This document shows positions 43,702 through 52,087 of a DNA stretch of 64,000 bases, piece after piece. The DNA is taken from the NCBI GenBank assembly GCA_963791065.1, contig CAWBQN010000001.1, positions 3,756-67,755 on the forward strand. The letters are read 5' to 3'. The stretch comes from an uncultured Bacteroidales bacterium. Its GTDB lineage: Bacteria > Bacteroidota > Bacteroidia > Bacteroidales > VadinHA17. The notes below the pieces were generated by a model. That model did no database searches. It was not told the origin of the DNA and worked only from the letters and a program-made list of their open reading frames with translations. The position numbers were made by a program, and so were the translations under genes. Every line of letters begins with the position of its first letter. Position 1 is the stretch's first letter.

Positions 43702-43736
43702 CTCTGTGGATCTATGTGCACCTCTGTGTTTCTGTG
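43702..43736. repeat. family D heptamer array, solo (CTCTGTG-type x4)
   Basis: CTCTGTG, CTATGTG, CTCTGTG and TTCTGTG sit at 10/10/8-nt spacing. On the minus strand this reads as a CACAGAG-type array ending 15 nt upstream of the plsC-like ATG. Confidence 0.75.
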
Positions 43737-46649: not shown

Positions 46650-46721
46650 CTCTGTGGCTCTCTGTGTCTCCTCTGTGGCCCTCTGTGTAACAAAAAAGAA
46701 CTCACACAGAGTTACACAGAG
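46650..46721. repeat. family D back-to-back heptamer arrays (CTCTGTG x4, spacer, CACAGAG x2)
   Basis: CTCTGTG occurs at 46650, 46660, 46671 and 46681. Then come TAAC-A6GAACT and CACAGAG at 46705 and 46715. CTCTGTGTAAC and GTTACACAGAG can pair. Confidence 0.8.
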
Positions 46722-48552: not shown

Positions 48553-48667
48553 TTAACCGCAAAGGTCGCAATCCCGAGAACTCGGGATGCGCAAAGGACG
48601 CAAAGAACTAATTTATAATATCTTGACTTTGCGTACTTTGCGTCTCCTTGGCGTGCTTTGCGGTTAA
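48553..48667. repeat. family E inverted heptamer-array shell without cargo (CGCAAAG / CTTTGCG)
   Basis: The termini TTAACCGCAAAG...CTTTGCGGTTAA form a 12-nt perfect inverted repeat. The left half carries CGCAAAG-type units and the right half CTTTGCG-type units at 9-11-nt spacing. An internal hairpin ATCCCGAG-AA-CTCGGGAT lies at 48571-48588. Confidence 0.8.
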
Positions 48668-49554: not shown

Positions 49555-49608
49555 AATCCATTAACCGCAAATTAAGTAATAAAATCAAATTCTATTTTGA
49601 AGAACTTA

Positions 49609-49645
49609 CACAGAGAGACACAGAGAATCACAGAGTTACACAGAG
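49609..49645. repeat. family D heptamer array, 5' flank of the GxxExxY gene (CACAGAG x4, exact 10-nt period)
   Basis: CACAGAG occurs at 49609, 49619, 49629 and 49639. The array ends 17 nt before the ATG at 49663. Confidence 0.85.
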
Positions 49646-49662
49646 AATATAAAAATAATATT

Positions 49663-50034
49663 ATGGAATTGAATGAAATCACAAGAAGAATTATAGGATG
49701 TGCAATTGAAGTACATAAGAGCCTCGGACCAGGATTGCTTGAATCAGCATATGAGGAATGTCTCTCCTATGAACTTATTAAAAACGGATTGAATATTAAA
49801 AGGCAACAACCAACTCCTGTAGTGTACAAAGATATAAAACTGGAATGTGGTTACAGGATCGATATTTTAGTAGAGAATTCCGTAGTTGTTGAACTAAAAG
49901 TCGTTGACGAATTTAATCCAGTTCATGAAGCTCAGATTCTTACTTATATGAAGTTTTCAAACAAATCAATTGGTTTATTGATCAACTTTAATGTTACGGT
50001 TTTAATAAATGGAATCAAAAGATATAGATTTTGA
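49663..50034 (+). CDS. GxxExxY protein (small PD-(D/E)XK-fold family)
   Basis: 123 aa from the ATG at 49663: [34 protein letters not shown].. (G-LL-E-SA-Y), ..[16 protein letters not shown]. The track start at 49597 only translates the heptamer array. Confidence 0.85.
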
Positions 50035-50076
50035 ATCTGTGGTTCTCTGTGGATACTCTGTGCAACTCTGTGTAAC
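50035..50076. repeat. family D heptamer array, 3' flank of the GxxExxY gene (CTCTGTG-type x4 + TAAC)
   Basis: ATCTGTG at 50035 and CTCTGTG at 50045, 50056 and 50066 start immediately after the stop codon. This array is the reverse complement of the 5' array. Confidence 0.85.
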
Positions 50077-50116
50077 CAAAGATATCTTCTTTATTTCTAG
50101 TAAATTATCTCAATTA

Positions 50117-52087
50117 ATGACAAAGCATGTAATAATTATTTTTCTAATTCTATTCCCGTCAGTTGCTATTGGTCAGGAAACAACTAATTCAGAATTGATC
50201 ATCAGTATTGCAGAAGAACTCGCCGCAGATGACTCCGATCCCGACGCGGTTACTGCCTTTGTAGATAAGCTAAATGAACTCACTGAGAATCCTGTAAAAA
50301 TCAACTCTTCGAGTGAAAATGAAATATCCCGGTTATTCTTCCTTTCTGATTTCCAGGTAAAAGCTCTTGCAGAATATACTCATTCTTCAGGACCGGTCGT
50401 CTCGGTATATGAAATTGCTGCAATCCCCGGATTTGACAGGGAAACGGTGGAGATGATCATTCCTTTCATCACTCTTGAGAATAAGCTGGTGATTGATTCA
50501 GATTCTGTCCGGTGGAGAAACACCTTGATATCAAATTTCTCACTGAAATCAGGAAATAACAATTCAGCTTATTTAGGCACATTATGGAAAATCCTGACAA
50601 AATACAAATTCACTGCCACCGGATTTTCAGGAGGAATGACGATTGAGAAAGATCCGGGAGAAAAGCTGCTTTCCGGCACTCCTCCTCTCCCCGATTTCTT
50701 ATCGGCATACCTTTCATATAAAGGAAGAGGAGTGATTAAAAGAATCATTGTCGGCGACTATTCCGCCAGATTCGGACAGGGTTCAAATTTAAACACCGGT
50801 ATCCGCAGAGGAGTTTCTCTTACAACTCCGGGCTATATGTCGGCCAGCGATGAGATTGTTCCCTATTCCTCAACCGAAGAAAACAGGTTTCTAAGAGGTA
50901 TTGCAGCTGAGCTTTCCCTCAGAAGTCTTGGAATATCAGTATATTTTTCAAAAAACTTCTCTGATGCTACAATTAACACTCCATCAGACCCGCAGAATAA
51001 TTTCATTGAAAGTCTATACGCTGGAGGACTCCACAACACACCCTCACTTCTCAAAAAAAAAGATGCGGTTTCTATAGTATCTTATGGATTATCATGTTCG
51101 TACAACTTTAATAATCTGAAGGTTGGGCTGGCGTGGACAGAAAACCGGCTCTCACTTCCCATATTAGTGACAATAATTGATCCTGAAAAGATCTACTCTT
51201 TTACAGGCCACAGTAACAGTCTCTATACCGTCTATTACAATAGTTTTATCAGGAAGATCCTGCTTTTTGGTGAATTATCGTTAAATAATTATAACAGGAT
51301 CGCTCTCATTCAGGGAATGTCTTTCAGGCCGTCAGACAGGTTATCAATCAATCTTCTGTTCAGAAACTATAGTGCCGGTTATACAACTTTCTATGGCCAG
51401 GGACCCGGATCCGGTTCAAAGACCAGCAACGAATGCGGGATACTGGGAAATTTTACATTCGAAGCTGCCAGACATCTGTTCATAAGCGCCGGATGTGACG
51501 TTTATAATTTCCCGTGGCTAAAGTACCGGTGCAGTGCTCCTTCTCGTGGAGTAAAGAAAGAACTAAAAGTCAGATATTTACCGACAGAAAAACTCATTTT
51601 TGATGCTTCATACGATTACCGGTTCTCTATGGCAGATAGTGCAGAAGGTCAGGGAATCCCGGCTCAAATGATGCTTATAACCAGCAGTTTAAGAGCATGT
51701 GCCCGTTATATTGTTAATGACAATCTGACTCTCGGTACAAGAGCCGACTTTAAAAAAGCTGATCCTTCGGGAAGCAAAGGTATGATGCTGTTTCAGGAAT
51801 TAAGTTACCGTTTTACGAAGATTCCGGTTACGGTCTGGGCCAGGTTTTGCCTTTTCAATACTACCAGCTGGGATTCCAGAATATACACATATGAAAATGA
51901 TCTGTTATACAGCTACAGTATACCTGCCTTATCAGGAGAAGGAAGCCGGAGCTATTTTATGGTCAAATGGTCAGTCAGAGGCCGGGCAGAGCTAAGAATA
52001 AAATACGCGATTACCTCTCTGATATCGAATGATAAATCATCTCCGGATACCGATGAAATTAAAATGCAGTTCAGGGTTGCGTTTTAG
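50117..52087 (+). CDS. helix-hairpin-helix domain protein with a large predicted OM beta-barrel
   Basis: I prefer the start at 50117 (MTKHVIIIFLILFPSVAIGQ, a signal peptide). It has a ComEA-like HhH (FQVKALAEYTHSSGPVVSVYEIAAIPGFDRETVEMI), then about 500 aa of beta-strand-rich sequence ending ..MQFRVAF. Confidence 0.6.
   Translation: MTKHVIIIFLILFPSVAIGQETTNSELIISIAEELAADDSDPDAVTAFVDKLNELTENPVKINSSSENEISRLFFLSDFQVKALAEYTHSSGPVVSVYEIAAIPGFDRETVEMIIPFITLENKLVIDSDSVRWRNTLISNFSLKSGNNNSAYLGTLWKILTKYKFTATGFSGGMTIEKDPGEKLLSGTPPLPDFLSAYLSYKGRGVIKRIIVGDYSARFGQGSNLNTGIRRGVSLTTPGYMSASDEIVPYSSTEENRFLRGIAAELSLRSLGISVYFSKNFSDATINTPSDPQNNFIESLYAGGLHNTPSLLKKKDAVSIVSYGLSCSYNFNNLKVGLAWTENRLSLPILVTIIDPEKIYSFTGHSNSLYTVYYNSFIRKILLFGELSLNNYNRIALIQGMSFRPSDRLSINLLFRNYSAGYTTFYGQGPGSGSKTSNECGILGNFTFEAARHLFISAGCDVYNFPWLKYRCSAPSRGVKKELKVRYLPTEKLIFDASYDYRFSMADSAEGQGIPAQMMLITSSLRACARYIVNDNLTLGTRADFKKADPSGSKGMMLFQELSYRFTKIPVTVWARFCLFNTTSWDSRIYTYENDLLYSYSIPALSGEGSRSYFMVKWSVRGRAELRIKYAITSLISNDKSSPDTDEIKMQFRVAF

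Follow-up and report, generated by a model that had tools for sequence, protein, structure and literature searches.

We analyzed a small gene cassette in a 64,000-nt stretch of DNA from an uncultured Bacteroidales bacterium (hereafter the window, from the start of which all coordinates without a prefix are counted), in which the gene of a 123-aa protein of the GxxExxY family lies between two inverted arrays of four CACAGAG-type heptamers. Gene and arrays are linked across many species, and the type of heptamer follows the clade of the protein. Considering these sequence comparisons, we give about an even chance to the reading that the GxxExxY nuclease recognizes its own heptamer arrays and that, within a repeat family, the cassette is the member that carries the gene. 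The cassette is composed of the following parts.

49600..49608, + strand: motif at the outer flank of the left arm, AAGAACTTA, recognized because it recurs ahead of forward arrays elsewhere
49609..49645, + strand: left arm, CACAGAG four times (units at 49609, 49619, 49629 and 49639; exact 10-nt period) with variable 3-nt spacers
49646..49662, + strand: A/T-rich leader of 17 nt, from the last unit to the ATG
49663..50034, + strand: GxxExxY/PDDEXK_3 gene of 123 codons (ATG at 49663, stop codon at 50032-50034)
50035..50076, + strand: right arm, ATCTGTG and then CTCTGTG three times, ending in TAAC and beginning right at the stop codon

Direct reading of the sequence confirmed what an earlier note on this DNA had described, namely the four CACAGAG units at an exact 10-nt period with the open reading frame (ORF) starting 17 nt further on, and the inverted array straight after the stop codon with periods of 10/11/10 nt (units at 50035, 50045, 50056 and 50066; array 50035-50072). 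The first unit of the right arm has an A where a C is expected (ATCTGTG vs CTCTGTG). The same note had misplaced the outermost unit: GTTACACAGAG (49635-49645) is the innermost upstream unit, while the outermost one reads CTTACACAGAG. Terminal inverted repeats are present (...TTACACAGAG / CTCTGTGTAA... and TTAACCGCAAAG / CTTTGCGGTTAA), and the two ends of the element can be distinguished as AAGAACT-TA-(CACAGAG)4 and (CTCTGTG)4-TAAC. In the whole window, 17 exact heptamers were observed vs 5.3 expected, a number reached by 0 of 100 shuffles, and chains of at least 3 units numbered 5 vs 0.04 in shuffles. Among the ORFs of the cassette we recognized no transposase or recombinase, the sole ORF being that of the 123-aa PD-(D/E)XK protein.

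Profile searches assigned this protein to PF13366 (E 7e-43, 146.1 bits vs a cut-off of 22) and TIGR04256 (E 2e-45, 153.9 bits vs a cut-off of 35; residues 4-121 covered), a family of 22,809 representative clusters at 50% identity whose function is listed as unknown in a superfamily survey (PMC3424549). Across 33 homologs, G24-L-L-E27-S-A-Y30, D67, E77-L-K79 and Q91-I-L-T-Y95 were invariant or at least 90% conserved, and this residue set (G24xxE27xxY30 / D67 / E77-x-K79 / Q91xxxY95) is the motif set of RecB, lambda-Exo and Cas4. The AlphaFold model (pLDDT 86, pTM 0.79) contains an alpha-beta-beta-beta-alpha-beta PD-(D/E)XK core, the nearest folds in the Protein Data Bank (PDB), all of them weak matches, being lambda exonuclease, an alkaline exonuclease and Cas4 SSO0001. 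From the conserved residues, we think that the protein is probably an active PD-(D/E)XK nuclease of the RecB/lambda-Exo/Cas4 branch. Pfam and NCBIfam returned PDDEXK_3/GxxExxY, a weak Cas4 match and no HUH/Y1 transposase; the sole PADLOC match was also Cas4 (E 4e-4, 18.7 bits), not a significant defence-system component, and searches with the protein found nothing among PDB sequences and no match in PHROGs. Some proteins of ~265-295 aa (P0241-P0247, P0249-P0252) have two matched stretches and are apparent tandem GxxExxY fusions, suggesting that the functional unit may be at least a dimer.

Linkage of gene and arrays across species

We scanned one genome per species of the Genome Taxonomy Database and obtained 80 further loci at 61-91% identity, 79 of them with full flanks, from hosts in several Bacteroidota classes, Ignavibacteriota, Chlorobi, Acidobacteriota, Spirochaetota and others. 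Units (pattern C[AG]C[AG][AG]AG and its reverse complement) were counted per 110 nt, using other windows of the same loci as controls. Results showed 2.4 forward units upstream of the gene and 2.2 reverse-complement units downstream, each vs 0.05 in controls, an enrichment at the gene flanks of ~47-fold. At least 2 units were present upstream in 56 of the 79 loci (0.6% of control windows) and downstream in 53 (0.5% of control windows). The earlier note had considered that other GxxExxY paralogs might turn out to lack flanking arrays; we found at least 2 units on both sides in 45 of these 79 independent loci. Conversely, compact convergent array pairs enclose a GxxExxY ORF in 32 cases and any other intact small gene in 0. 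The arrangement is also found in cultured, annotated organisms, as radA-[TTCAC-F3-GxxExxY-R3-GTGAA]-FAD protein in Bacteroides finegoldii, where the ortholog is WP_032839887.1, and with the same gene between arrays in Bernardetia sp. The upstream neighbor was co-oriented with the gene in 67 of 76 loci vs a background of 73%, which fits expression by read-through.

The design of the arrays is rather constant. Four units were counted in 45 of 52 arrays, with periods of 10 nt in 104 cases, 11 nt in 33 and 9 nt in 11; the forward array ends a median of 14.5 nt before the ATG (26 loci) and the reverse array starts a median of 2 nt after the stop codon. The idea that one helical turn per unit places all heptamers on the same face of the DNA, put forward in the earlier note, holds for this subtype (10/11 nt) but not for the arrays of Bacteroides and those that we call type 2, which have 9-nt periods. 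These arrays are not clustered regularly interspaced short palindromic repeats (CRISPR), as the units are of 7 nt, the spacers of 2-4 nt and the number of units per array is four; CRISPR arrays have repeats of at least ~21 nt and unique spacers of similar or greater length. Rfam, searched at gathering and permissive thresholds with the window and B. finegoldii, gave no relevant family. A role as intrinsic terminator or sigma-70 promoter was unsupported, and no T-tract terminators were found.

The heptamer itself varies, and the variants (CACAGAG, CACGAAG, CACGGAG, CACAAAG and CGCAGAG) group by protein clade and not by host label. Mean protein distance was 0.306 within a variant vs 0.357 between variants, a difference that 0 of 2000 permutations reached, and in 12 of 17 minority-variant loci the nearest protein neighbor has the same variant. 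Moreover, one metagenome-assembled genome (MAG) carries paralogs with differing heptamer variants. At the locus L231, type-2 arms (CGCAAAG) flank a GxxExxY gene of another clade, 57% identical to the window protein, that groups with the CACAAAG/CGCAGAG clade.

The constraint falls on the heptamers and not on the spacers. The closest homologs (92-93% identity) all lie in one syntenic slot, adk-hpt-purE-barrel-[slot]-656aa-recJ, where the heptamers are letter-perfect while the sequence and the length of the spacers vary. In nine orthologous cassettes, heptamer positions were 97% conserved (489/504) vs 46% for spacers (81/177). When we looked at mirrored pairs of units in which one bears a variant, 0 of 40 were compensated, and the spacers between units never pair. 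Therefore, it is the sequence of each heptamer that is selected and not the pairing between arms, and a selected RNA or DNA stem between the arms could be ruled out.

Two distant genes have repeats of a different kind. In Sphingomonas parapaucimobilis (L228 1995-2423), a GxxExxY gene of 36% identity lies between fabD and fabG of the operon for fatty-acid synthesis, with three CGCGAAG-like units of 8-nt period abutting the ATG and no downstream array. In Prevotella nigrescens (L230), the GxxExxY gene (37% identity) has direct, not inverted, ACAAAT(C/A) repeats on both sides (1870-1952 and 2379-2480, ~10-nt period), in a neighborhood that resembles a tandem array of small genes.

Gene-less arrays, turnover and age of the cassette

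Arrays also occur without the gene, dispersed over many bacterial genomes that include those of gut Bacteroides. Among 120 metagenome loci (711 kb) drawn by DNA pattern alone, the GxxExxY ORF was present in 5 and missing in 115. The arrays took the form of 112 singlets, 31 convergent doublets and 29 divergent doublets, and 217 of 232 (94%) were intergenic. Singlets showed no strand bias relative to the neighboring genes, being split 18 vs 18 ahead of starts and 30 vs 20 past stops, and tandem, convergent and divergent spacers were occupied as per their availability, with no preference for a spacer type; a role of the arrays as 5' untranslated region elements 15-17 nt before ATGs was ruled out on these grounds. 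Some ORF-less convergent elements (L141, L218, L211) have the exact outer flanks of the cassette, including AAGAACTTA, which is also found 5' of the forward array in the orthologous cassettes L021-L025 and in the linkers of divergent doublets. The latter consist of the two ends abutted over a conserved A/T-rich linker, and the site between adk and obg in the window is one of them. Doublets fold strongly (z = -3.8 to -9.3), and long clusters of alternating orientation (L196, L197, L205, L210) recall bacterial interspersed mosaic elements (BIMEs). Two loci are higher-order amplifications of elements: L057 (1838-3798), with tandem convergent doublets of ~336-nt period and 157-158-nt interior, and L205 (3210-5860), with a dozen CACAAAG/CACGAAG arrays densely around one GxxExxY gene.

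The window itself contains these further array sites.

43702..43736, - strand: type-1 singlet array of CACAGAG, CACATAG, CACAGAG and a fourth, degenerate unit, followed after ~15 nt by the ATG of an acyltransferase gene
46650..46721, no strand assigned: type-1 divergent doublet from the adk stop to the obg start, CTCTGTG x4 - TAAC AAAAAA GAACTCA - CACAGAG x2
48553..48667, no strand assigned: type-2 convergent doublet without ORF, TTAAC-(CGCAAAG)x4 - 21 nt - (CTTTGCG)x4-GTTAA, 9-nt period
49557..49571, + strand: remnant of a type-2 (CGCAAAG) left arm, TCCATTAACCGCAAA, directly past the stop of the upstream gene

The first two had been reported as gene-less copies in the earlier note, and we found both as described, while the two type-2 sites had escaped it. 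All 4 array sites of the 64-kb window fall inside 6.4 kb (43.7-50.1 kb) and the remaining 57.6 kb has none, which suggests that arrays are locally clustered around the cassette.

We compared the spacers of this neighborhood among syntenic relatives and found the following states.

adk-obg spacer: empty, 36 nt (L223/L224); type-1 doublet with the linker in either orientation; unrelated G/C-rich repeats
purE-barrel spacer: type-1 divergent doublet; type-2 convergent doublet, in relatives in a CACAAAG version; nothing
Cassette slot (barrel/656aa): empty (L223, L224, L232); type-1 cassette; type-2 cassette, either intact (L231) or with an internal deletion (L233); PF05635 four-helix-bundle gene (L226)

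Both the arrays and the cassette are thus polymorphic for presence and absence among relatives, a point on which the earlier note had made its proposal depend. Its suggestion of aligning the junction in relatives was successful as far as empty slots were found; the exact insertion boundaries are not definable, because in L223, L224 and L232 the neighbor protein is ~60% identical and the spacers are too diverged to be aligned.

Succession and decay are visible at the cassette slot. The remnant motif TCCATTAACCGCAAA starts the intact type-2 cassette of L231 and the internally deleted one of L233, and is also found in L021, L023, L225 and L226; the window slot held a type-2 cassette earlier, of which this left-arm remnant is left. 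The deleted cassette of L233 has kept both arms and the last 17 codons (tblastn 76% identity, E 1e-6), and in L061 a truncated cassette adjoins an intact one. These truncated cassettes show that internal deletion accounts for at least part of the ORF-less doublets. In L226 (3062-3421), the slot contains a 119-aa PF05635 23S_rRNA_IVP gene beside a type-2 arm remnant, flanked by GAACTA...TAGTTC-like motifs and not by CACAGAG arrays. No PF05635 gene beyond this one was found in the collected loci, and a second small-ORF family seems to share the insertion niche.

At the adk-obg site, the doublet of relatives has 4+4 units. The linker of the window (46688-46704, tgAGTTCTTttttGTTA on the coding strand) is inverted compared to that of L016, L007 and L226 (TAAC-aaaaaaat-AAGAACTTA), implying either an inversion between the arms or a separate insertion event. 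In three other loci (L001 1-175, L014 1-160, L225 556-748), the heptamer doublet is absent from this spacer and G/C-rich hairpin repeats are present (cccttcccttaaacaataagggaaggg; ccccccaaatgggggg / ccccccatttgggggg); the adk-obg spacer is a hot spot shared by several families of repeats.

The type-2 doublet at 48553-48667, which folds as single-stranded DNA with -36.9 kcal/mol (z = -9.3), has its second unit broken up by a palindrome, TCCCGAGAACTCGGGA (48572-48587). Similar small G/C palindromes (tcccgggtactcggga, tcccgatagttatcggga, cccgcttaggcggg, ccccccgatagctatcgggg) lie in or between heptamer units in the upstream arm of L025, the downstream arm of L029, L001 at ~1976-2000 and the slot of L233. 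They look like a separate, very small insertion element targeting the arrays, and are reminiscent of the small dispersed repeats that occur within heptamer repeats in Nostoc.

The gap between the genes flanking the window cassette is of 562 nt (49555-50116), close to the ~560 nt of the earlier note. The outer-membrane identity that it had given to both neighbors is putative: the upstream gene has a weak PorV/PorQ-family match under the curated cut-off and the downstream gene an HHH_3 domain. The longest ORF of the downstream gene (50009-52087, vs 50117-52087) starts inside the GxxExxY gene and runs through the right arm. Database entries of 683-748 aa, one of them with a PF13366 match (P0174), are probably over-extended or fused gene calls across the cassette.

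Selection on the window copy was assessed from the ratio of nonsynonymous to synonymous substitutions (dN/dS) of the window vs L001, L007 and L012.

GxxExxY gene: 0.02-0.034
adk: about 0.03
purE: 0.016-0.020
barrel gene: 0.09-0.11
656-aa gene: 0.13

As in the neighbor genes, dS of the GxxExxY gene was saturated (1.3-2.2). Saturated dS together with low dN/dS means that the gene is vertically inherited, functional and not recently transferred. Since its dS is saturated like that of its neighbors, neither a recent horizontal transfer nor gene conversion accounts for the high conservation of the protein. The proposal of a self-propagating cassette in the earlier note does not apply to this copy, which is anciently fixed, vertical and under purifying selection as strong as that of adk and purE.

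Possible recognition of the arrays by the nuclease

In the explanation that we favor, the basic unit of the repeat family would be the array of four CACAGAG-type heptamers, recognized by the 123-aa nuclease, probably as an oligomer reading the four tandem sites of each arm. The gene between two inverted arms would represent the autonomous member of the family, while array-only singlets and doublets would be either decayed cassettes or copies that are not autonomous, and the protein would make them, maintain them or act on them in trans; it may bind or cut the heptamers and thereby generate or maintain the arrays. The enzyme gene is stably vertical under strong selection and the arrays turn over between related genomes, as is the case in the systems formed by repetitive extragenic palindromic (REP) sequences, their doublets (REPINs) and REP-associated tyrosine transposases (RAYTs).

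Several observations weigh against this explanation. The fold matches of the protein are weak (E ~6e-3, TM 0.46). The family gave no matches in viral contigs and INPHARED phages, is absent from 50,697 phage genomes and is rare on plasmids (8 records, mostly chromosome-like replicons), and the anciently fixed window copy shows no recent gene mobility. No target-site duplication was defined, the candidates TA and TTAA being indistinguishable from the inverted termini because they are palindromic. In about 30% of the subfamily members, one flank or both are without clear arrays, and most of the distant PF13366 members (36-37% identity) have none; this fading makes the association a property of the conserved subfamily and not of all PF13366 proteins. 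Finally, some taxon labels come from MAG binning, such as the "Chloroflexota" label of L027, a locus with Bacteroidales synteny.

An alternative that we consider unlikely, but that fits a good part of the geometry, is of the homing type: the arrays would be an independent repeat family with another way of spreading, and a selfish nuclease ORF would recognize the intact convergent doublet, cut it between its arms and be copied in by repair. The ORF indeed nearly fills the space between the arms, since a leader of ~14 nt and a trailer of ~2 nt correspond to the 14-16-nt spacer of the main ORF-less convergent class, and inverted arms are suited to a symmetric oligomer. Homing endonucleases of the PD-(D/E)XK class are known, for example I-Ssp6803I, and share with the cassette a small nuclease gene at a possibly self-recognized site and a symmetric recognition architecture. 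Two cassette types in succession at one slot also agree with homing, and the link between variant and clade is equally expected under it. However, homing leaves the spread of the arrays unexplained, and the truncated cassettes of L061 and L233 lead from cassettes to ORF-less doublets, which is the opposite direction. The cassette differs from known homing genes in that it does not lie in an intron or intein, is accompanied by a large family of repeats that lack the gene, and is under purifying selection of housekeeping level with long-term vertical inheritance, and no filled and empty pair was seen that differs by the ORF alone.

If the protein were mainly a DNA-binding regulator or nucleoid factor, autoregulated through its flanking arrays and controlling or insulating genes at the dispersed ones without making them, the full nuclease catalytic set would not need to be invariant. 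Such an operator or regulon is improbable also considering that arrays after stops and in convergent spacers are as common as before starts, that the arrays at adk-obg and purE turn over between close relatives, unlike a conserved regulon, and that the copy number and the BIME-like clusters look like those of a repeat family. What speaks for it is the resemblance of tandem phased sites beside a start codon to operators or iterons, in which short motifs likewise repeat roughly once per turn of the helix (10-11 nt for the arrays of this subtype), together with the conservation of the heptamers as sequence, strong purifying selection and vertical inheritance, which fit a host function. The arrays differ from iterons in their position, which is not a replication origin, in their many dispersed copies, in the 9-nt period of other subtypes and in their linkage to a gene of nuclease fold.

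Slightly less probable still is a function at the RNA level, in which the 5' CACAGAG and 3' CUCUGUG arms would form an interrupted stem in the transcript that is processed, in the manner for example of rRNA intervening sequences cut by RNase III, or that stabilizes or insulates the mRNA within a host operon, the doublets being processing or stabilizing hairpins. The intervening sequences of 23S rRNA in Leptospira and Coxiella carry an ORF for a four-helix bundle (PF05635, 23S_rRNA_IVP). They are similar to the cassette in that a small ORF of unknown function is bounded by complementary sequences within a host transcription unit, and a gene of this very family occupies the identical slot in L226. 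The complementarity of the arms, the strong folding of doublets and the co-orientation of the gene with its upstream neighbor also fit. Nevertheless, none of the 40 variant-bearing pairs was compensated, spacers never pair, most elements (112/172) are singlets, for which a hairpin is impossible and which are unbiased in strand, arrays prefer no type of spacer, and there are neither T-tract terminators nor an Rfam family, so that the RNA-processed cassette of the earlier note found no support. Moreover, the cassette lies between protein-coding genes and Rfam finds no rRNA, no sign was seen that a stem is selected or processed, the protein has another fold, and the IVP gene of L226 has no CACAGAG arrays.

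A chance accumulation beside the gene of repeats generated by slippage or bound by a host factor is hardly credible, since, even if the intergenic DNA of these lineages is rich in arrays, most of them distant from GxxExxY genes, they are enriched at the gene with fixed geometry and inverted orientation, the heptamer variant goes with the clade of the protein and is not the same in the paralogs of one MAG, and the arrangement persists over classes and phyla.

Relation to known repeat systems and implications

The closest parallel is offered by the REP/REPIN-RAYT systems and BIMEs (PMC3116915, PMC3337134, PMC5581495, bioRxiv 10.1101/2021.07.10.451892). In both cases, an enzyme gene is flanked by its own inverted repeats and the class of repeat matches the clade of the enzyme; the repeats are extragenic, far outnumber the gene and occur as doublets and decayed singlets; and the gene is vertical under purifying selection while the repeats turn over. 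Clusters of alternating orientation with conserved linkers are, in addition, shared with BIMEs. On the contrary, the enzyme here is a 123-aa PD-(D/E)XK protein (RecB/Cas4-like), whereas RAYTs are HUH/Y1 transposases of the IS200/IS605 superfamily, and the repeat is a non-palindromic array of four heptamers with 2-4-nt spacers, whereas a REP is an imperfect palindrome of 20-40 nt with a GTAG/CGTC tag. As a single arm cannot form a hairpin, the recognition of single-stranded DNA hairpins by RAYT and IS200/IS605 enzymes is inapplicable as such. Hosts differ too, being mainly Bacteroidota and allies instead of Proteobacteria, and the GxxExxY family is often multi-copy. By this comparison, the cassette would work like REPIN/RAYT without being a member of that group, from which both its enzyme and its repeat separate it. 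The parallel drawn in the earlier note, a REP/RAYT-like organization with a different fold, thus holds for organization, linkage and polymorphism, but not for self-propagation of this copy or RNA processing.

The cassette also resembles a parent transposon with its miniature inverted-repeat transposable elements, as it has two distinguishable inverted ends with several binding-site-like motifs per end, ORF-less convergent versions with the same outer flanks (L141, L218, L211) and internally deleted copies (L061, L233). It departs from them in that no DDE, HUH or serine/tyrosine recombinase was recognized and no target-site duplication could be demonstrated, the gene copy has been immobile over a long period, and divergent doublets are as common as convergent ones.

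We found no description of this arrangement in the open-access literature on GxxExxY, PDDEXK_3, TIGR04256/PF13366 and CACAGAG repeats. Considering this and the negative Rfam searches, the cassette with its arrays seems to be an undescribed system of enzyme and repeats that can be compared to the REP/RAYT of Proteobacteria. A broader proposal, to which we assign somewhat less than an even chance, is that the proteins of this subfamily may be the enzymes of an unrecognized class of repeat elements, in which a minimal nuclease would read four-heptamer arrays through a clade-specific heptamer code and generate, mobilize or maintain them, as a second and mechanistically independent invention of the REPIN/RAYT kind.

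For the PF13366/TIGR04256 family, the heptamer arrays represent a first concrete functional lead, with a DNA partner that can be tested, and the clade-specific heptamers suggest a simple code of protein-DNA recognition. If the proposal is true, a second enzyme-plus-repeat system, with another catalytic fold and another repeat design, would stand beside the single well-studied one, REPIN/RAYT, in phyla where extragenic repeats have been little studied, and it would be widespread in Bacteroidota (including the Bacteroides of the human gut), Ignavibacteriota/Chlorobi and Acidobacteriota. Arrays are found right at the junctions between genes in core operons (adk-obg, purE, radA, fabD-fabG), and close relatives differ in them; in gut Bacteroides they may therefore be relevant to the expression of genes, the stability of the genome and the typing of strains.

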